From: Nostoc sp. S4
GTDB lineage: Bacteria > Cyanobacteriota > Cyanobacteriia > Cyanobacteriales > Nostocaceae
Direction: 5' to 3'
Assembly: GCA_029379225.1 (NCBI GenBank)
Contig: JAQYWR010000036.1
Coordinates: 1,132 to 33,131, forward strand
DNA: 32,000 nt
Shown here: piece by piece, positions 10,583 through 18,709 of the stretch
Layout: every line of letters begins with the position of its first letter
Numbering within the stretch: position 1 is the first letter of the stretch
Made by a program: the position numbers and the translations under genes
Notes under the pieces: model-generated
Told to the model about the DNA's origin: nothing
The model's database searches: none
The model's input: the letters and a program-made list of their open reading frames with translations, nothing else

Positions 10583-11515
10583 ATGCTCAAAAAGCTGCGA
10601 TTTGATTTCAGTTCTTTATTTGGCTTGTTGCTACTGGTGCTTTCTTTGTGGGCGATCGCTCACGAATTGCATGAGTATAATTATCGTGATATCCTCAACT
10701 CTCTAGGCGCTATTCCCAAAAGTCGCTTAAGCTGGGCAATTTGGCTGACAGCTTTGGGTTATCTAGTGATGATTGAGTATGATATTTTGGGTTTTAATTA
10801 CATTAATCGTTCCCTCAACTGGAACAAAATTGCTTTCACTAGCTTTATTAGCTCTGCATTTAGTAATACGATAGGTTTTGCCTTACTGACTGGTAGCGCT
10901 ATCCGTTATCGATTTTATGCTAATTGGGGAGTCTCAGCAGTGGAGATCGCTCAAATAATTGCTTTTGCTAATTTTACTTTTTGGTTGGGGATGTTTGCCA
11001 TTGCTGGATTGATATTTGTTACCAACCCTTTGACAATTCCCACACAACTACATTTGCCTTTTGCAACAGTACGTCCCATTGGTATAATTTTTTTGTTGTT
11101 GATTGCTATATATTTGTTAGGAAGTCTTTTAATTAAACAACCATTAATTATTCGTCAGCAAGAATTTCGCTTTCCTTCCTTGCCAATATCCCTAGCTCAA
11201 ATTGCAATTTCTAGCCTGGACTGGATTCTGGCTGCGGCGGTTCTTTTTGCGGTGCTTCCTAGTAATACTCCTTTGTCTTATCTTGATTTTTTAGGAATTT
11301 ATTTACTAGCGATGTTTGCAGGTGTGGTTAGTAATATTCCTGGGGGTTTGGGTGTTTTTGAAACTGTGATGTTGCTGTTTTTATCATCAAAAATTTCGGC
11401 AGTGGCTGTTTTAGGTTCGCTGTTAGCTTATCGTGGGGTATATTATTTTTTACCTTTGCTGATTGCGGCAGGTTTGCTGGGAATATATGAAGTTAAATTT
11501 AGAGTCAGGGATTAG
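10583..11515 (+). CDS. MprF-like / UPF0104 (YbhN-type) integral membrane protein
   Basis: 310 aa with about 8 TM segments. The pattern YDILGFNYI..KIAFTSFISSAFSNTIGFALLTGSAIRYRFY resembles the membrane domain of lysyl-phosphatidylglycerol synthase/flippase proteins. No cytosolic synthase domain follows. Confidence 0.7.
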   Translation: MLKKLRFDFSSLFGLLLLVLSLWAIAHELHEYNYRDILNSLGAIPKSRLSWAIWLTALGYLVMIEYDILGFNYINRSLNWNKIAFTSFISSAFSNTIGFALLTGSAIRYRFYANWGVSAVEIAQIIAFANFTFWLGMFAIAGLIFVTNPLTIPTQLHLPFATVRPIGIIFLLLIAIYLLGSLLIKQPLIIRQQEFRFPSLPISLAQIAISSLDWILAAAVLFAVLPSNTPLSYLDFLGIYLLAMFAGVVSNIPGGLGVFETVMLLFLSSKISAVAVLGSLLAYRGVYYFLPLLIAAGLLGIYEVKFRVRD

Positions 11516-11523
11516 GTTTTTCA

Positions 11524-11564
11524 ACGCAAAGGGACGCAGAGGTAAGCGCAAAGGTACGCAGAGG
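11524..11564. repeat. Small dispersed repeat (CGCAAAGG / CGCAGAGG modules)
   Basis: acgcaaagggacgcagaggtaagcgcaaaggtacgcagagg. The same modules occur in the opposite orientation at 2969-3012. Confidence 0.5.
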
Positions 11565-11685
11565 TTTTGTTGGAAGTCGTCCCTTAATTTTTTTATAATT
11601 TCTTCTGTTATTTGTTCTTCATCACCTGTTTAGAGGCTGTTAGACTGAGAACCATAAGTAAAATTTCGGATGTTTTGGCGAATTT

Positions 11686-12075
11686 ATGGAGCCAGTATCA
11701 CTGACAGCAGCTGCGATCGCCACCTTGGTCATCACTAAAGCCTTTGAAAAAACTGGTGAAACCATCGGCGAAAAGGCTTGGCAGGAAGGTGAAAAGTTAT
11801 TATTACTCTTGAAGCGCAAACAACCCAACACAGCCAATGCAATAGAACTGGCTCAAACACAACCTTTAGATTATGGTCAAGCGCATTTGGTTGAGCAAGT
11901 AGAACAAGCGGCAAACAAAGACCCGGAAATTGCTCAAGCTGTCGAGACGGTGGCGGATGCTGTCAAATCTCAACCCGCTATTATCCAGAATTTTACGAAC
12001 ACAGTTGATAAAAATTATGGCGGGAATGTCGGGAATGTTTCTCATGACAACCGAACCCAAACTTTTAACTTCTGA
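11686..12075 (+). CDS. 129-aa helical N-terminal (effector-like) module, in frame with the downstream NB-ARC/TPR ORF and ended by TGA 12073-12075
   Basis: ATG at 11686. A hydrophobic, small-residue N-terminal helix (MEPVSLTAAAIATLVITKAF) is followed by charged helices and an N/G/Q-rich tail (IIQNFTNTVDKNYGGNVGNVSHDNRTQTFNF). It shares the reading frame of 12136-14211. Confidence 0.6.
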   Translation: MEPVSLTAAAIATLVITKAFEKTGETIGEKAWQEGEKLLLLLKRKQPNTANAIELAQTQPLDYGQAHLVEQVEQAANKDPEIAQAVETVADAVKSQPAIIQNFTNTVDKNYGGNVGNVSHDNRTQTFNF

Positions 12076-12135
12076 CTACAGCCGCCCGAACGGGAACGGG
12101 TAAAGTTAAATCCCCCTACTGAAATACCGCAAAAT

Positions 12136-14211
12136 TTGCCCCTGAGTGGGGTGGTGGAATTTGTTGGACGTGAACAAGAATTGCAAAACCTCCATCAACT
12201 TTTGCAGGATAATAAGCAAGTAGCTATTGCAGCTATTACTGGGATGGGTGGAGTTGGTAAAACAGAACTCGCCCTGCAATATGCCATTCAGCAACGCGAA
12301 ACATATAACGGTGGGCTTTGCTGGTTGCTGGCAAAAACTGGGGATGTGGGCATTCAAGTTGTGCAGTTTGCCAGAACGCAGCTTGATTTAAAGCCACCAG
12401 AAGATTTTGATATACTCGCCCAAGTGCAATATTGCTGGCGGCGTTGGCGTGAGGGTGAGGTGCTGCTAGTGTTGGATGATGTCAGCGACTACGAGCAAGT
12501 TAAGCCTTACTTACAGTCGCTACCTTCTCGGTTTAAAGTGTTGATGACTACACGCCAGAAGTTGGGACGCATCCCACAGTTATCTTTGGATGTACTGCAA
12601 CCAGAGGCGGCGCTGGAGTTGTTGAGGTCTTTACTCAAGGAAACACCAGAGCGAATTGAGCGAGAATTAGCTGTAGCAAATCAGTTGTGTGAGTGGCTAG
12701 GATATTTACCTTTGGGTGTGGAATTAGTGGGGCGCTATCTGGCGCGGAAACAGGATTTATCTCTAACAGAAATGTTGCGGCGATTGGAGAACAAGCGACT
12801 AGATGAGCGTTCTCTGTCTAAATCTAAGTCAGAAGCCGACATGACAGCACAACGAGGTGTATTAGCAGCCTTTGAGTTGAGTTGGCAAGAATTAGAAGAC
12901 GACGATAAGCAATTGGGCTGTTTATTGAGTTTATTTGCCGCCGCACCCATACCTTGGAAGTTGGTGGAACAGTGTTTACCAGAAGAAGATGTCGAAGATT
13001 TAGAAGAAATTAGAGACGATAGCTTGCTGAATCTACATTTACTCCAGCGCAAAGGTGAGGGAGTTTACCAATTGCATCCACTGTTGCGGCAGTTTTTCCA
13101 ATATAAGTGTACAGGTTTAGAAAAGGCAGAGGAACTTAAGCGAAGTTTTTGCCGGGTAATGGTAGCAGTTGCCCAAGATATTCCTTACTCGTCAACCCTT
13201 GAGCAAATCACCATCGTCTCTCCTGCCATACCTCACATAGCAGAAGTAGCAAATAATCTTATTCAATACGTTAACGATAATGATTTAACTGGAGCATTCA
13301 TCGGTAACGCTCGATTTTACGAAGGTCAAGGGTTGTATAACCAAGCTTTACCTTGGTATAAGCAGTGTCTAGAAGTTATCAAAAAACGCTTAGGAGATGA
13401 ACACTCATTTGTTGCAGAAAGCCTCAACAACCTAGCTTTACTCTACGAATCTCAAGGCAGATACAGCGAAGCCGAACCCCTTTACATGCAAGCTTTGGCA
13501 CTCACGCGTAAGCTGCTGGGCAAAGAACATCTAGATGTCGCCACTAGCCTCAACAACCTAGCGGTACTTTACCAATCCCAAGGCAGATACAGCGAAGCTG
13601 AACCCCTTTACATCCAAGCTTTGGCACTCACACGTAAGCTGCTGGGCGAAGAACATCTAGATGTCGCTCAAAGTCTCAACAACCTAGCTGTACTCTATGA
13701 TTCCCAAGGCAGATACAGCGAAGCCGAACCCCTTCACATCCAAGCTTTAGGACTCAGGCGCAAGCTGCTGGGAGAAGAACATCCACATGTCGCCTCTAGC
13801 CTTAACAACCTAGCAGGACTCTACTTTGCCCAAGGCAGATACAGCGAAGCCGAACTCCTTTACATTCAAGCTTTGGCACTCAGGCTCAAGCTGCTAGGAG
13901 AAGAACATCCAGATGTCGCACTTAGTCTCAACAACCTAGCGTATCTCTACTCTTCCCAAGAAAGATGCAGTGAAGCCGAACCGCTGTACCTACGAGCTTT
14001 GGAACTAAGACGCAAGCTGCTAGGAGAAGAACATTCATTTTTTGCCATTAGTCTTAACAATTTGGCAAAACTTTACTACTTACAAAAACGTTACGCACAA
14101 GCCGAACCATTGTATCTGCAAGCATTAGAAATTTTTGAGCAACAATTAGGGGTAAATCATCCTTGGACTGTTAAGTGTCGTGAAAATCTGGCAAATCTTT
14201 CCGTAGGCTAG
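12136..14211 (+). CDS. NLR-like STAND ATPase: NB-ARC domain plus kinesin-light-chain-type TPR array
   Basis: Walker A GMGGVGKT (12241-12264), Walker B LLVLDDV, then MTTR and GYLPLG (GLPL-like) motifs, followed by 6-7 TPR units of 42 aa. There is no in-frame ATG between the upstream TGA and the P-loop, only TTG 12136 and GTG 12151/12154. Confidence 0.85.
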   Translation: MPLSGVVEFVGREQELQNLHQLLQDNKQVAIAAITGMGGVGKTELALQYAIQQRETYNGGLCWLLAKTGDVGIQVVQFARTQLDLKPPEDFDILAQVQYCWRRWREGEVLLVLDDVSDYEQVKPYLQSLPSRFKVLMTTRQKLGRIPQLSLDVLQPEAALELLRSLLKETPERIERELAVANQLCEWLGYLPLGVELVGRYLARKQDLSLTEMLRRLENKRLDERSLSKSKSEADMTAQRGVLAAFELSWQELEDDDKQLGCLLSLFAAAPIPWKLVEQCLPEEDVEDLEEIRDDSLLNLHLLQRKGEGVYQLHPLLRQFFQYKCTGLEKAEELKRSFCRVMVAVAQDIPYSSTLEQITIVSPAIPHIAEVANNLIQYVNDNDLTGAFIGNARFYEGQGLYNQALPWYKQCLEVIKKRLGDEHSFVAESLNNLALLYESQGRYSEAEPLYMQALALTRKLLGKEHLDVATSLNNLAVLYQSQGRYSEAEPLYIQALALTRKLLGEEHLDVAQSLNNLAVLYDSQGRYSEAEPLHIQALGLRRKLLGEEHPHVASSLNNLAGLYFAQGRYSEAELLYIQALALRLKLLGEEHPDVALSLNNLAYLYSSQERCSEAEPLYLRALELRRKLLGEEHSFFAISLNNLAKLYYLQKRYAQAEPLYLQALEIFEQQLGVNHPWTVKCRENLANLSVG
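13420..14175 (+). repeat. Six tandem 126-bp coding repeats (42-aa TPR units), near-identical at DNA level
   Basis: Units begin at 13420, 13546, 13672, 13798, 13924 and 14050. Each encodes SLNNLAxLYxSQGRYSEAEPLYxQALxLxRKLLGEEHxxVAx. Long identical stretches such as caaggcagatacagcgaagccgaaccc recur. Confidence 0.85.
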
Positions 14212-14638: not shown

Positions 14639-14833
14639 CTAAGGGCTATTCCATTCTTCTAGCGTAATTTGCCGTTCTAAAATCATCTCAACTTCTGCAA
14701 TCATCATCCGCAATAGCGGTACAGAATACTCATCATTAGAAGGAATAGTTAGGCGATGTTGGCTATAAACCATAAACTGATGTCTTGTTCCAGAATAAGG
14801 CCCCTCAAACCCAATCCATCGTAATTTCTTCAC
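14639..14833 (-). CDS. hicA: HicA-family (YcfA-like) toxin, type II toxin-antitoxin system
   Basis: The 64 aa KKLRWIGFEGPYSGTRHQFMVYSQHRLTIPSNDEYSVPLLRMMIAEVEMILERQITLEEW fit the HicA pattern (..KLGFEGPYSGGKHQFM....RLTIP..). Only a GTG start is available at 14833, and the open frame continues upstream as ..KRRDF without an ATG. The gene lies 13 nt after the hicB stop. Confidence 0.75.
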   Translation of the reverse strand: MKKLRWIGFEGPYSGTRHQFMVYSQHRLTIPSNDEYSVPLLRMMIAEVEMILERQITLEEWNSP

Positions 14834-14846
14834 AAAATCCCGACGC

Positions 14847-15119
14847 TTACACGGTATCCATCAGCTCAAGGCTCGGCTCCTTGTTGAGGTCAATATTATC
14901 AATTACTGGTAGAGAATGTCCCAACTTTAACCCAAGCAAAATCCAGTCTTCGAGCGTTGAGCGTAATTCATCCTCACACTCACGCAAAGTCGATGCAAAG
15001 GCTATTACTCCTTTACAAACAGGAATTCTACCTGTAAATGTACCATCTTCTAACTTGTCATAAATTGCTTGGGCGATCGCTAGCTCAACATAGTCGCTCA
15101 GAATAAATCTTATCGTCAT
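14847..15119 (-). CDS. hicB: HicB-family (UPF0150-type) antitoxin
   Basis: 90 aa with DGTFTGRIPVCKGVIAFASTLRECEDELRSTLEDWILLGLKLGHSLPVIDNIDL, the typical HicB N-domain pattern. It sits directly upstream of hicA on the same strand. Confidence 0.75.
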   Translation of the reverse strand: MTIRFILSDYVELAIAQAIYDKLEDGTFTGRIPVCKGVIAFASTLRECEDELRSTLEDWILLGLKLGHSLPVIDNIDLNKEPSLELMDTV

Positions 15120-15349: not shown

Positions 15350-15919
15350 ATGATAGCCTCCCCCCAACAAATTTATCTTACCCCTGAACAGTACATCCAA
15401 CTAGAGGAACAAAACCCTGTCAAACATGAATACATCGACGGCTACATCTATGCAATGGCTGGAGCGCTTGACCCACATGTTACCATTGCTGGAAACCTGT
15501 TTGCTCTCCTCCGTAATCATATACGCGGTTCTAGTTGTCGTGTTTACATCGCCGACATGAAAGCCCGAATTGAATCTCTAAATCGCTTTTATTATCCCGA
15601 TGTCATGGTTACTTGCGACTCACGAGACCGAGAAACACCAGCGTATAAAAGCTTTCCCTGTTTAATTGTTGAAGTTTTATCTAATTCTACTGAAGCCTTT
15701 GACCGGGGTGACAAGTTCGCTGATTATCAAGCACTCGAAACCTTGAAAGAATACGTTTTAATTAATACAAAACGTCAACGAGTTGAGTGTTTTCGCCGCA
15801 ATGATGAGGGACTGTGGGTTTTGCAATCTTACACAGCAGAAGATAAATCATTTCGACTCAACAGCGTGGATTTTCAAGAAACAATAGCAGCACTTTACGA
15901 AGATGTAGTTTTTGAATAA
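15350..15919 (+). CDS. Uma2 family endonuclease (DUF820, PD-(D/E)xK-like)
   Basis: HEYIDGYIYAMAGA .. YYPDVMVTCD .. PCLIVEVLSNSTEAFDRGDKFADYQ .. LKEYVLIN is the characteristic Uma2 pattern, a family abundant in cyanobacteria. Confidence 0.85.
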   Translation: MIASPQQIYLTPEQYIQLEEQNPVKHEYIDGYIYAMAGALDPHVTIAGNLFALLRNHIRGSSCRVYIADMKARIESLNRFYYPDVMVTCDSRDRETPAYKSFPCLIVEVLSNSTEAFDRGDKFADYQALETLKEYVLINTKRQRVECFRRNDEGLWVLQSYTAEDKSFRLNSVDFQETIAALYEDVVFE

Positions 15920-16855: not shown

Positions 16856-18709
16856 ATGGCGCTCATAGTTCAGAAATACGGTGGTACATCTGTCGGTTCA
16901 GTCGAACGCATTCAGGCTGTTGCACAGCGCGTCTACAAAACTGTCAAAGCTGGAAACTCTCTGGTTGTAGTGGTTTCGGCAATGGGCAAAACCACTGATG
17001 GACTAGTCAAACTAGCTAATGAAATTTCGCCAAATCCTAACCGCCGGGAAATGGATATGCTGCTTTCCACTGGCGAACAAGTAACCATTGCCTTACTGAG
17101 TATGGCATTGCAGGAACTCGGACAACCAGCAATTTCTATGACTGGCGCTCAAGTAGGAATTGTTACCGAAGCAGAACACAGCCGCGCTCGGATTTTGCAT
17201 ATTGAAACTACTCGCGTAACTCGCCACCTCACAGCAGGAAAAGTAGTTGTAGTTGCGGGTTTTCAAGGCATATCCAGTGCCGGAGAAATGGAAATTACAA
17301 CTTTGGGACGTGGTGGTTCTGACACTTCAGCAGTAGCACTGGCGGCAGCATTACAAGCAAGTTTCTGTGAAATTTATACAGATGTTCCAGGTATTTTAAC
17401 TACAGACCCCCGCTTAGTTCCCGAAGCTCAGTTGATGGATGCTATCACCTGTAATGAAATGCTGGAACTAGCTAGCTTGGGAGCAAAAGTGTTGCATCCC
17501 CGCGCTGTGGAAATTGCTCGCAACTACGGTGTTCCCCTCGTAGTCAGATCTAGCTGGACAGATGACCCAGGTACTTGGGTAACATCAGCTAAACCCCAAG
17601 GGCGATCGCTAATCAACTTAGAAATTGCCCGTCCAGTAGACCATGTAGAATTTGACACAGACCAAGCAAAGGTCGCTCTACTGCGCGTTCCTGACAAACC
17701 AGGTGTGGCAGCAAGTTTATTTGGGGAAATTGCCCGTCAAAAAGTAGACGTAGATTTGATTATTCAATCAATTCATGAAGGTAACAGTAATGACATTGCT
17801 TTTACTGTTACTACACCAATTTTAAAACGAGCCGAAGCAGTAGCAGCTGCGATCGCCCCAGCCCTGAGGAGTAAATCCAACCCCAAATCTGATGAAGCCG
17901 AGGTAATGGTAGAACAAAAGATTGCTAAAGTCAGCATTGCAGGTGCAGGTATGATTGGGCGTCCTGGTATAGCTGCAAAGATGTTCGCTACCTTAGCCGA
18001 AGCTGGCATAAATATACAGATGATTTCCACCAGCGAAGTTAAAGTCAGCTGCGTAGTAGATGCAGCAGAATCCGATCGCGCCGTTACTGCATTGAGTACA
18101 GCATTTGAAATTGAAGCAAGGGAGCAGGGGAGTAAGGGAACACAGGAAACACGCACCTGTGCCCCTCTGCCCCTCCGCACCTCTGCCCCTGTGCCGAATT
18201 GTCCTCCCGTCCGTGGTGTCGCCCTTGACTTAAACCAAGCGCGTCTTGCTATTCGTCAATTACCAGACCGGCCGGGAATGGCGGCGAAGTTGTTTGGATT
18301 ATTAGCGCGATATAACATCAGCGTTGATATGATTATCCAATCTCAGCGTTGTCGGGTAATTGATGGTATTGCCAGACGGGATATTGCCTTTACAGTCTCG
18401 CGGATGGATGGAGAAAATGCAAAACAACTGCTTACTCAAGTAGCAATAGAATTGGGATGGGGTGAAGTTGTTTTAGATAATGCGATCGCCAAAGTGAGTA
18501 TTGTGGGCGCAGGTATGGTAGGGCAACCAGGTGTTGCCGCTAAAATGTTTGAAGCCTTAGCCCAACAACAAATTAATATTCAAATGATTGCTACTTCAGA
18601 AATCAAAATTAGCTGTGTCGTCGCCCAAGAGCAAGGTGTTAAAGCTTTGCAAGCTATTCATACCGCCTTTGGTCTAGCTGGTAGTGAAAAATTTGTAGTC
18701 CCAGCATAA
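16856..18709 (+). CDS. lysC: Aspartate kinase, long cyanobacterial form with duplicated ACT-domain pairs
   Basis: N-terminus [10 protein letters not shown], with GRGGSDT and [14 protein letters not shown]-type motifs. Two ACT pairs are present (..[20 protein letters not shown].. and ..[20 protein letters not shown]..). Length is 617 aa. Confidence 0.92.

Follow-up and report, generated by a model that had tools for sequence, protein, structure and literature searches.

A conserved, weak in-frame UGA in filamentous cyanobacteria probably yields both a short Bell-type protein and a rare fused NLR sensor from one message

The window analysed here is the whole 32,000-nucleotide stretch of Nostoc sp. 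S4 DNA, and the locus under study lies on its forward strand. Translation showed that one reading frame of 842 codons runs across positions 11686-14211 and contains a single internal stop, a TGA at 12073-12075. This stop ends a small ORF of 129 codons that starts at ATG 11686, and the same frame then continues into an NLR body (12076-14211, + strand) with an NB-ARC domain at about 12172-12846, a TPR array at about 13285-14208 and its own stop at 14209-14211. Pfam analysis of the NLR gave NB-ARC (7.5e-17), TPR_10 (5e-88) and TPR_12 (6e-88), with seven TPR_10/TPR_12 repeats, and the TPR units are 126 nt long, 85% alike and present in 4.9 copies. A first-pass annotation had placed the ORF at 11686-12075 and the NB-ARC/TPR ORF in one frame broken only by this TGA, with the P-loop GMGGVGKT at 12241-12264 and no in-frame ATG between stop and P-loop; translation and a codon scan agreed on all three points. 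The alternative starts that it listed (TTG 12136, GTG 12151/12154) are present, but TTG 12181 and TTG 12202, both 3' of FVGR, the first NOD motif, had been overlooked. Ribosomes can get to the NLR body only by passing the UGA or by starting at a weak internal codon.

A consensus scan found a promoter-like site, TTGGAA-18 nt-TATAAT, at 11570-11599 on the + strand (10/12 matches), which lies about 87 nt 5' of the start codon and is a candidate promoter for one transcript spanning both ORFs. The scan supports this promoter weakly, and the count of promoter-like sites in the region equals that in shuffled sequence. Neither a promoter-like nor a terminator-like site was found between 12075 and 12241. 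The neighbouring genes in the window encode an esterase, an LPG-synthase-type membrane protein, a UPF0150/HicB-like protein, Uma2 and an aspartate kinase.

The window NLR scored 341.4 bits against the NCBIfam model NF040586 (FxSxx_TPR), which is above the curated cut-off of 300, so it would be labelled "FxSxx-COOH system TPR protein". This match reflects the common NB-ARC+TPR architecture. An FxSxx-COOH system was rejected: the C-terminus of the small protein is ...TQTFNF, and the neighbours include neither the radical-SAM protein FxsB nor FxsC.

Homology and AlphaFold2 indicated a Bell-type all-helical domain in residues 1-109 of the small protein (11686-12012, + strand). Over residues 1-129, it shares 64% identity with the small ORF of locus L040, which is exactly RCJ33357.1, the Nostoc Bell exemplar shown in Fig. 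1C of Dyrka et al. (2020, bioRxiv 10.1101/2020.01.06.895854). By sequence, the 129-aa window protein belongs to this published Bell domain family. Its length is within the family range of 120-140 aa, the all-alpha domain covers about 100 aa, the first helix is hydrophobic (MEPVSLTAAAIATLVITKAF) and residue 2 is acidic; the N-terminus reads M-E-P-VSLTAAAIATLVITKAF, and these positions are invariant or near-invariant in the family alignment. The AlphaFold2 model has seven helices in residues 6-111 (mean pLDDT 68). A protein search returned 232 homologues of 102-163 aa, and there were 265 cluster representatives. Pfam, NCBIfam and PADLOC gave no significant match for the 129-aa protein, and DUF7517 and ZorA, which matched weakly, were dismissed as its family. 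Foldseek found nothing in the PDB at E < 1 for the model; the top match, the Rx CC domain, was not significant (E = 1.7) and was not used as evidence. The order of helical N-domain, N/G/Q-rich tail, NB-ARC and TPR that the first-pass annotation had read was upheld by Pfam and AlphaFold2, and RCJ33357.1 now places the N-domain, for which it had proposed a family search, in the Bell family.

The small protein ends in a putative C-terminal signalling tail, NYGGNVGNVSHDNRTQTFNF (12013-12072, + strand), whose G/N/Q/V-rich composition makes it a candidate amyloid-type (BASS-like) motif. AlphaFold2 predicted tail residues 112-129 to be disordered in the monomer (pLDDT < 50). Across the Bell family the tails are modular, for example NYGGNVGNV... 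versus NWQGINIKGG....

The survey of the stop covered 68 TGA loci, 67 of them with a full-length small ORF, and 9 loci with TAA or TAG. The frame stayed open for at least 100 codons past the TGA in 66 of these 67 loci, which come from at least 15 cyanobacterial genera, and the continuation leads into a STAND NTPase or another module; all nine TAA/TAG loci were closed and out of frame. This contrast gave a Fisher value of 7e-11, but the loci are homologous and not independent, so the locus counts overstate independence, and the shared frame could be inherited in part. The TGA itself was unchanged in 66/66 in-frame loci. It was followed by C at the +4 position in 66 of the 68 TGA loci and by CTA (59/68) or CTG (5/68) as the next codon in 64 of them. 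Among background stops of the same DNA, TGA made up 16% and TGA-C was the rarest context (4/218). UGA-C is documented as a poor terminator in bacteria (PMC5289835). The 66 in-frame loci have all retained a leaky stop with its 3' context, and neither a sense codon nor a stronger stop has taken its place. This conservation across loci marks the UGA at 12073-12075 (+ strand), followed by CUA, as the proposed read-through (recoding) site. The junction lies in frame before three STAND classes (NB-ARC/TPR, nSTAND1/WD40 and an nSTAND3-like protein) and before other modules.

The same in-frame TGA was present in the 66 genome loci, the window, one ENA contig (L081) and 4 metagenome contigs, which goes far beyond a chance arrangement, and this recurrence excludes the assembly error that the first-pass annotation had asked about. 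Its first option was a freshly inactivated NLR gene, and one in-frame stop in an intact 842-codon frame does mimic a recent nonsense mutation when seen in one genome. But 66 loci in at least 15 genera carry this TGA at the identical position, and purifying selection acts on both halves: dN/dS was 0.37 for the Bell domain and 0.12-0.17 for the NOD, so the NLR gene is functional. Copies that have truly decayed show another pattern, namely further stops or insertions at other sites. A fresh inactivation is refuted by these data, and we give next to no credence to the general idea of a freshly or neutrally inactivated pseudogene with a functionless stop.

No TGG or other sense codon, and no TAA or TAG, occurred at the in-frame junction among the protein matches, the metagenome matches or the cluster representatives. 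Natural fusions were searched for with a junction-spanning query carrying W at the stop position, and the only protein that spanned the junction with W (P0142) turned out to be encoded with TGA, which the gene caller had translated as W. A metagenome pattern scan with any codon allowed at the stop gave 14 matches, 10 of them unrelated chance matches and four of Bell type, and 4/4 of the latter had TGA. The exhaustive search of the representatives showed that none of the long proteins is a sense-codon version of the junction; the two longest turned out to be Bell fusions of another kind, one with HEAT-like repeats (P0314) and one with a predicted membrane segment (P0296). A sense codon in orthologues, which the first-pass annotation had suggested looking for, was not found, and all the in-frame loci carry TGA.

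The 9 TAA/TAG loci are true two-gene pairs, in which the NLR is out of frame, starts with ATG and repeats the tail motif at its N-terminus. In the pair at L080, the tail is ENWKGINIKGGSPTINSPKFTF and the NLR N-terminus is MTTEDWQGINFKDSNPTINNPTFYIG; the tail motif is doubled in the same way in L020 and L036. No copy of the window tail was found on the NLR side of the window (LQPPERERVKLNPPTEIPQNLPLSGVVEFVGRE), where the pattern of BASS pairs would place the same motif of about 20-25 aa on the Bell C-terminus and on the N-terminus of the adjacent NLR, and no second motif copy was found on the NLR side in any TGA locus. As the TGA loci have no second motif copy, only read-through would give their NLR a signalling module.

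The sequence just after the stop is unusual. The linker LQPPERERVKLNPPTEIPQNLPLSG (25 codons, 12076-12150, + strand) shows constraint on its nucleotides: the entropy of third positions is close to zero in it and 1-1.8 bits on either flank, and dS is 0.148 compared with 0.77 and 0.87 in the flanks, which is about fivefold lower over the 75 nt (25 codons) after the stop. dN is not reduced (0.108 vs 0.089), and the linker dN/dS is 0.73, so coding constraint on the first 15 linker codons is not demonstrated. IPxNLPxSGVVxFVGRE, which is part of the linker, is translated in NLRs with fused N-terminal domains.

Within this block, covariation indicated a hairpin, HP1 (GCCCG / loop AACGGGAA / CGGGU; 12084-12101, + strand), which begins 8 nt after the UGA and was also predicted independently by RNAalifold. 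Pairing was kept in 99.1% of cells, with compensatory changes in 2 of the 5 pairs (15 cells); none of 500 shuffles was as good, and slid controls paired in at most 45% of cells. The stem is 5 bp long, single-sequence folding of 12073-12155 was unremarkable (z = -1.14), and HP1 is not kept in a subgroup of 14 loci with a 9-nt shorter linker. HP1 is a candidate read-through stimulator, for which its covariation speaks, while its short stem, ordinary stability and absence from this subgroup speak against it. Two other structures were rejected: a second hairpin, HP2 (12138-12152), was 98.8% paired but showed no covariation and did the same as shuffles, and an outer helix, UGACU:AGUYA, varied on one side only and was broken in L070, L075 and L077.

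A hairpin conserved at a fixed distance of 8 nt from an invariant UGA, within a block whose nucleotide conservation resembles that of in-ORF recoding elements, could also suggest dedicated decoding of the UGA, either as selenocysteine or by a lineage-specific opal suppressor tRNA, with HP1 as the recognition element. We consider this very unlikely. An Rfam search (SECIS included) of 11500-12500 at E up to 10 gave only two chance eukaryotic matches, the 5-bp stem and A/G-rich loop of HP1 are unlike the bacterial SECIS elements that we know of, selenocysteine has no obvious use in a disordered linker, and there is no tRNA gene in the window. To our knowledge, few if any Nostocales have the Sec trait.

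The conserved block could instead be a recombination homology patch, through which Bell-tail cassettes are swapped between NLR paralogues by gene conversion. Tail type B (NWQGINIKGG...) is paired with both linker types and tail type A with only one, which shows exchange with breakpoints near the stop, and many genomes have several paralogues. Gene conversion should lower both dN and dS, yet only dS is low in the linker, and the invariance of TGA-C, the frame and the covariation of HP1 would be left unexplained. As the explanation of the block, a homology patch has only a slim chance of being right in our estimate, and it does not compete with read-through, since both could hold.

Start codons in the 57 NB-ARC loci bear on the second option of the first-pass annotation, a stop with downstream re-initiation. 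No ATG lies upstream of FVGR-1 in any of them (0/57). TTG is found at FVGR-7 in 39/57 and GTG at -2/-1 in about 36/57, which means that most loci, the window included, have a TTG or GTG just before FVGR as a possible independent NLR start, and 7/57 lack all three codons (ATG, GTG and TTG) 5' of FVGR. The NLR is in frame 0 in all 57; the P-loop lies at codon 48, 49, 50, 51, 52, 53 or 55 after the TGA, and every indel is a multiple of three. What follows the stop is a selected ORF in the same frame without an independent conserved start.

In a two-gene operon without read-through, the Bell-tail protein would end at the UGA, the NLR would be translated from TTG 12136, from GTG 12151/12154 or by termination-reinitiation, and the conserved 75 nt would be a coupling element or a regulatory RNA. 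The frame would be the legacy of an old nonsense mutation, kept because few changes are tolerated in this region, and signalling from the NLR to the Bell protein would go by direct contact instead of a shared motif. The frequent TTG and GTG codons would serve this arrangement, annotation pipelines start the NLR at that TTG (e.g., P0144, MPLSGVVEFVGRE), and Bell and NLR genes often have short gaps or overlaps (Dyrka et al. 2020). Nucleotide-level constraint alone would disfavour indels and stop-codon change, so it could account for the absence of both. But no candidate start is conserved, FVGR is preceded by no canonical start in seven loci, and the IPxNLPxSG motif, a translated sequence in fused NLRs, begins 5' of the TTG. 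Re-initiation requires no set frame or stop, but 66/66 loci retain frame 0 and TGA-C, even before unrelated downstream modules, and the NLR would be left without an N-terminal signalling or effector module, unlike its two-gene and EAD-fused relatives. Re-initiation is still the main rival, and a two-gene operon is possible but on the whole unlikely. The first-pass annotation had also held that orthologues which are always two separate genes would speak against its view; the databases do list 232 stand-alone small proteins, but the DNA shows an in-frame TGA and no conserved NLR start.

Programmed UGA read-through that gives an abundant Bell-motif effector and a rare Bell-motif-NLR sensor is the explanation that we favour, with moderate confidence. 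Only a conserved, in-frame, weak UGA separates the genes, so both products are probably made from one message. Comparison across the loci showed what speaks for this reading: the in-frame UGA-C, the lack of a conserved start, the frame-keeping indels, the nucleotide constraint, the covarying hairpin and the absence of the motif on the NLR side. Low-level UGA read-through had been the third option of the first-pass annotation; it is now the best-supported one, apparently as a conserved and selected feature and not as accidental leakiness. We infer the occurrence of read-through, its level and the inserted residue, and we infer the amyloid and cell-death steps by analogy with Bell/BASS and HET-S/NWD2.

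Under programmed read-through, the locus would be a single translational unit for two proteins, with UGA-CUA as a deliberately weak stop. Initiation would take place at AUG 11686, and most ribosomes would stop at UGA 12073 and release the 129-aa Bell protein with its amyloid-type tail, which may be a latent membrane-targeting executioner. A minority would decode the UGA, most likely by near-cognate tRNA-Trp, with help from the C at +4 and perhaps from the hairpin that starts 8 nt further on, and would make an 841-aa Bell-tail-NLR fusion that acts as the sensor. A ligand on the TPR array would then lead to NB-ARC oligomerisation and cluster the tails, and the clustered tails would nucleate an amyloid fold that serves as a template for the surplus of free Bell-tail protein, leading to cell death. 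More speculatively, the read-through efficiency at UGA-C might itself be a regulated input, set by RF2 activity and perhaps by the hairpin, so that recoding would itself be a sensing step of the NLR system. We regard this as improbable. If it were true, termination stress (phage takeover, starvation) would increase the amount of Bell-tail-NLR and prime or set off the death pathway, and UGA-CUA with the hairpin block would be a portable recoding cassette common to several STAND classes.

Bell/BASS-NLR pairs resemble the window locus in having a helical Bell protein of 120-140 aa with a G/N/Q-rich tail in a filamentous cyanobacterium, encoded directly upstream of and collinear with an NB-ARC/TPR NLR (Dyrka et al. 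2020). The window and the 66 genome loci differ from these pairs in that the NLR has neither a motif copy nor an ATG and one frame is split by UGA-C; stop codons, read-through and frame are not mentioned by Dyrka et al. (2020). Fungal HET-S/NWD2 and "all-in-one" HeLo-NLR systems also have a pore-forming helical executioner activated by an NLR via a short amyloid motif, and both split (two-gene) and fused layouts are known there. Unlike in the fungal systems, we propose that both layouts come from one mRNA here, at a ratio that depends on termination efficiency, and that one motif copy serves both partners. Plant CC-NLRs such as ZAR1 consist of a helical bundle with a hydrophobic first helix, an NB-ARC and a repeat sensor. 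The parts of the predicted read-through product are arranged in this order too, but the window protein has no sequence match or significant fold match to this type (the Rx CC match given above was the best in the PDB).

In phage Q-beta, a leaky UGA ends the abundant coat protein, and a few percent of ribosomes read on by inserting Trp, which gives A1, a C-terminally extended minor protein that is required for function. That is a phage gene, whereas the TGA loci are chromosomal immune loci with many paralogues, and their extension is a STAND NTPase of 700-1200 aa. At the autoregulatory site of prfB (RF2), UGA-C is a deliberately poor terminator, and the outcome is set by RF2 activity (PMC5289835). 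Both prfB and the window locus have UGA-C at the stop, but in prfB a slippery CUU, preceded by an SD-like element, leads to a +1 shift, whereas the continuation at the window locus is in frame 0 and its UUC-UGA allows no +1 re-pairing.

Programmed stop-codon read-through is well established in viruses and eukaryotes, but hardly any documented cases in chromosomal bacterial genes are known to us. A literature search for read-through linked to bacterial Bell proteins, NLRs or NB-ARC found nothing. Annotation pipelines turn each such TGA locus into two entries, a "hypothetical protein" and an NLR with a truncated N-terminus, so surveys of bacterial NLR effector domains will have missed them. If confirmed, the locus would represent a family-wide conserved case of bacterial read-through, with UGA-CUA and a constrained 75-nt block as the signal. 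It would also add a third NLR/amyloid-signalling architecture beside the "two-gene" and "all-in-one" ones, in which one gene gives effector and sensor at a fixed ratio, and in which one motif copy would serve both partners, so that two copies need not co-evolve.

Translation of the window bore out the first-pass annotation in that the small ORF and the downstream ORF lie in one reading frame, which covers 842 codons (11686-14211) with one internal stop. The small ORF runs on the forward strand from ATG at 11686 to TGA at 12073-12075 (129 codons), and its product had no Pfam match. The downstream part contains NB-ARC (7.5e-17) and seven TPR_10/TPR_12 repeats in Pfam, and the P-loop GMGGVGKT is encoded at 12241-12264 (+). 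No in-frame ATG was found from the stop to the P-loop in the window; the starts listed in the first pass (TTG 12136, GTG 12151/12154) are present, but the list was incomplete, and TTG 12181 and 12202 have to be added. A promoter-like site was located at 11570-11599, and there were no promoter-like or terminator-like sites between the two ORFs. Directly downstream of the NLR, on the reverse strand (14639-15119), a UPF0150/HicB-like protein of 90 aa (4.7e-27) and a 64-aa partner without Pfam match look like a toxin-antitoxin module. A Uma2-family putative endonuclease (15350-15919, +, 1.4e-41) and an aspartate kinase with four ACT domains (16856-18709, +) are neighbours of the ordinary chromosomal kind, so there is no obvious mobile element that carries the locus.

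Searched against about 5.8 billion proteins, the 129-aa protein had 232 homologues; each of the 120 matches listed is a stand-alone protein (102-163 aa), and they come from Nostocales and further filamentous cyanobacteria. HMMER, run exhaustively on 1.84 billion cluster representatives, yielded 265 matches, and of the 150 listed nearly all were 56-174 aa long. In the alignment, the N-terminal helix LTAAAIATLVITKAFEKTGE is nearly invariant and is followed by a helical body and exchangeable C-terminal tails, such as NYGGNVGNVxNDNRTQTFNF or NWQGINIKGGTNTISGNTFNF. The AlphaFold2 model (mean pLDDT 68) predicted seven helices within residues 6-111 and a disordered tail. The first pass had left this domain unassigned and suggested homology and fold searches; a fold search of the model against PDB gave no significant match, and homology gave the family. 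The window protein, which is WP_138501496.1 (Nostoc sp. PA-18-2419) and MDF5710158.1 (Nostoc sp. S4 MAG), is 64% identical to the small ORF of Nostoc punctiforme NIES-2108 (locus L040), and that ORF is exactly RCJ33357.1, the Nostoc example of the Bell domain in Dyrka et al. 2020 (bioRxiv 10.1101/2020.01.06.895854), so it belongs to the Bell family. Dyrka et al. 2020 propose that the Bell domain is the bacterial counterpart of the HeLo-type cell-death domains of fungi. On the PA-18-2419 contig (L001, 4388-4440), the Bell protein is identical to that of the window, the linker (the codons directly after the UGA) differs at several bases and the NLR is longer, with 927 codons after the stop versus 711, which means that TPR repeat number varies. 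The window thus represents another strain or a paralogous copy, possibly that of the Nostoc sp. S4 MAG, where an identical protein is encoded. The TPR array of the window (13420-14034) has 4.9 copies of a 126-nt (42-aa) unit at 85% nucleotide identity, and is of the highly internally conserved type linked to rapid diversification of NLR sensors (Dyrka et al. 2020).

To our reading of the DNA at each small-ORF end in 80 genome loci with relatives (one genome per species), 66 loci had a TGA end with the same frame open for at least 100 codons (up to 1201), one had TGA and then ran off the contig, and one (L062) had TGA and was rearranged. Nine ended in TAA or TAG with the frame closed within 2-58 codons, and in three the small ORF was disrupted outside these classes. 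Fisher's exact test for TGA versus frame continuity gave 7e-11, a value that overstates independence because the loci are related. The codon after TGA was CTA in 59/68 TGA loci and CTG in 5/68. Stops of frames of at least 300 codons in the same DNA were TAA 125, TAG 58 and TGA 35, and only 4/218 were TGA-C. UGA with C at +4 is a documented poor termination context in bacteria, which is exploited by prfB (PMC5289835). The carriers belong to at least 15 genera, including Nostoc, Komarekiella, Amazonocrinis, Dendronalium, Aulosira, Calothrix, Tolypothrix and Spirirestis, as well as Potamolinea, Floridaenema, Microcoleus, Aerosakkonema, Microseira, Waterburya and Lyngbya. Three loci (L037, L058, L064; small ORF at about 4001) hold decayed Bell copies in which the ORF is interrupted by early TAA codons or an insertion, at positions other than the conserved junction, and L037 and L058 retain the ...NF-TGA-L-x-SP junction. 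The possibility, one of three raised in the first pass, that the NLR gene was freshly inactivated is therefore refuted, since the same TGA is kept across at least 15 genera and decayed copies look different.

Orthologues, which the first pass had wished to see aligned at the stop, carried TGA in 68 of the 80 loci, and no sense codon was found. A junction-spanning query with W at the stop retrieved small proteins and NLR fragments as separate entries, the one exception being database protein P0142, which spans the junction with Trp. But its DNA (L081, 589-591; ENA contig ERZ27286106 k141_596624) reads TGA, which means that genes on this cyanobacterial contig had been called with a TGA=Trp table, and P0142 was rejected as a natural sense-codon fusion; L081 is another in-frame TGA example with a different tail, NVIQGNTFIGTNNF. 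Scanning metagenomes with any codon allowed at the stop position gave 14 sites, of which 4 were Bell-type (4/4 TGA) and the remaining ones were chance matches. Long proteins in the exhaustive representative search were other fusions, not sense-codon versions.

The nine TAA/TAG loci were all classical Bell/BASS pairs, with the NLR in a different frame and its ATG start 4-70 nt past the stop. Where readable, the NLR N-terminus repeats the small-protein tail, as in L080 (tail ENWKGINIKGGSPTINSPKFTF, NLR start MTTEDWQGINFKDSNPTINNPTFYIG) and L020 (tail AEKIGIVVQGGTVNI, NLR start MAEKIGVVNYGKTNIG), and this exactly matches the motif on both proteins of a Bell-NLR pair described by Dyrka et al. 2020. 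In contrast, the second motif copy on the NLR side was absent from the TGA loci, the window included, where the peptide after the stop, LQSPERERVKSNPSTEIPQNLPLSGVVEFVGRE, leads straight into the NOD (the NB-ARC-type core). Without this copy, an NLR translated alone would carry no signalling or effector module; a read-through product would carry both Bell domain and motif. In the Floridaenema locus L069 (4415-4500), Bell-tail-TGA is followed by in-frame LQSIAQVLGGIVVYVSGGQAIFG and then nSTAND1/WD40, with TTG at codon 8; the segment is beta-prone and might act as a second motif, and L069 perhaps combines the two layouts.

NB-ARC follows the stop in 57 loci (the window and 56 from the genome set); the P-loop was in frame 0 in 57/57 of these, at codon 48, 49, 50, 51, 52, 53 or 55 after the stop, so every linker length difference is a multiple of three, and these indels all precede any candidate start codon. 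The main rival to read-through is that the NLR is separately initiated or re-initiated at TTG/GTG, in a frame that was inherited and that an RNA element keeps from changing, and we consider it unlikely, though worth weighing. TTG occurs at -7 relative to FVGR, the first NOD motif, in 39/57 loci and GTG at -2/-1 in about 36/57; ATG upstream of -1 occurs in 0/57, and seven loci (L013, L014, L021, L067, L071, L072, L078) have no ATG, GTG or TTG between stop and FVGR. The IPxNLPxSGVVxFVGRE stretch begins upstream of the TTG and is translated sequence in NLRs with fused N-terminal domains, for example P0157 (PF19954), P0160 (PF19959) and P0150 (no Pfam domain on record). The Bell-tail-TGA-L-x-S-P-E junction also stands in frame ahead of several modules besides NB-ARC: an nSTAND1/WD40 protein (L069, 5e-108), an nSTAND3-like protein of about 1200 aa (L070, L077; the L075 copy is truncated at 698 aa), membrane or PsbP-like modules (L074, L056, L059) and an unknown domain of 124-133 aa (L065, L066, L073).

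In 36 distinct sequences with a 55-codon stop-to-P-loop spacing, third-position variation was almost nil at codons +1 to +25 after the stop, and both flanks had a normal coding pattern. Nei-Gojobori analysis of 406 pairs gave dS 0.148 and dN 0.108 for these linker codons, 0.77 and 0.089 for the start of the NOD, and 0.87 and 0.32 for the Bell domain, which means that the constraint acts on RNA or DNA, not on the peptide. The sole hairpin predicted by RNAalifold, independently, pairs 12084-12088 with 12097-12101 around the loop AACGGGAA, beginning 8 nt past the UGA. Pair counting found 99.1% of cells paired, with compensatory changes in 2/5 pairs (C:G to U:A; C:G to U:A or G:C) in 15 cells; this covariation was reached by 0/500 shuffles, and slid controls were paired in at most 45% of cells. 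The stem is only 5 bp, single-sequence folding of the post-stop region was not unusually stable (z = -1.14), and the hairpin was not kept in the 14 loci whose linker is 9 nt shorter. Rfam gave no match, SECIS included; dedicated decoding of the UGA is a minor alternative of very low probability, or one compatible with read-through. A second candidate at 12138-12152 (GCCCC-UGAGU-GGGGU), with TTG and GTG codons on its flanks, has Pro always as CCC or CCT and Gly nearly always as GGG, and is unsupported as a conserved hairpin, showing no compensatory changes. When L022, L030, L031, L035, L042, L043, L052 and L057 were compared with L023-L028, L032, L034 and L040, tail type B (NWQGINIKGG...) was combined with two linker types (P-loop at codon 55 or 52) and tail type A with one only, which indicates that cassettes have been exchanged at breakpoints near the stop codon. 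That the constrained block is purely a recombination junction seems highly improbable, and this role, too, is either minor or consistent with read-through.

The Bell domain, BASS-type tails, NB-ARC/TPR NLRs and UGA-C leakiness are already known, and what is new is the arrangement of Bell-tail and NLR in one frame split by an in-frame UGA. Neither the Bell/BASS paper (Dyrka et al. 2020) nor the main survey of these conflict systems mentions stop codons, read-through or frame, and full-text literature searches found no read-through linked to Bell proteins, NLRs or NB-ARC in bacteria. A BASS pair has the motif on both proteins, whereas the window locus has an in-frame UGA instead. Although the window NLR (12076-14208) scores 341 bits against NCBIfam NF040586 FxSxx_TPR (cut-off 300), the defining partners of the FxSxx-COOH system are absent at the locus, and automatic annotation likely misnames the whole class as 'FxSxx-COOH system TPR protein'.

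Judged from sequence comparison, programmed UGA read-through is the simplest account of all features of the locus and probably the right one. It is suggested by an invariant weak stop protected from sense codons and stronger stops alike, an invariant frame kept through indels and exchange of downstream partners, the lack of a conserved start codon, the loss of the NLR-side motif of true two-gene relatives, and a constrained block that contains a covarying hairpin, a candidate stimulator spaced from the stop as recoding stimulators usually are. At the UGA, most ribosomes would terminate and release the 129-aa Bell-tail effector, and a few would read on to give the 841-aa Bell-tail-NB-ARC-TPR sensor. 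If the analogy with Bell/BASS and HET-S/NWD2 holds, sensor molecules that oligomerise upon ligand binding might nucleate the amyloid fold of the tail, which would template the free effector and lead to cell death. If true, such a design would set a fixed ratio of effector to sensor and ensure that both partners carry the same motif. NLR and amyloid signalling would then have a third architecture, and the loci would be one of the rare candidates for programmed read-through among gene families of bacterial chromosomes.
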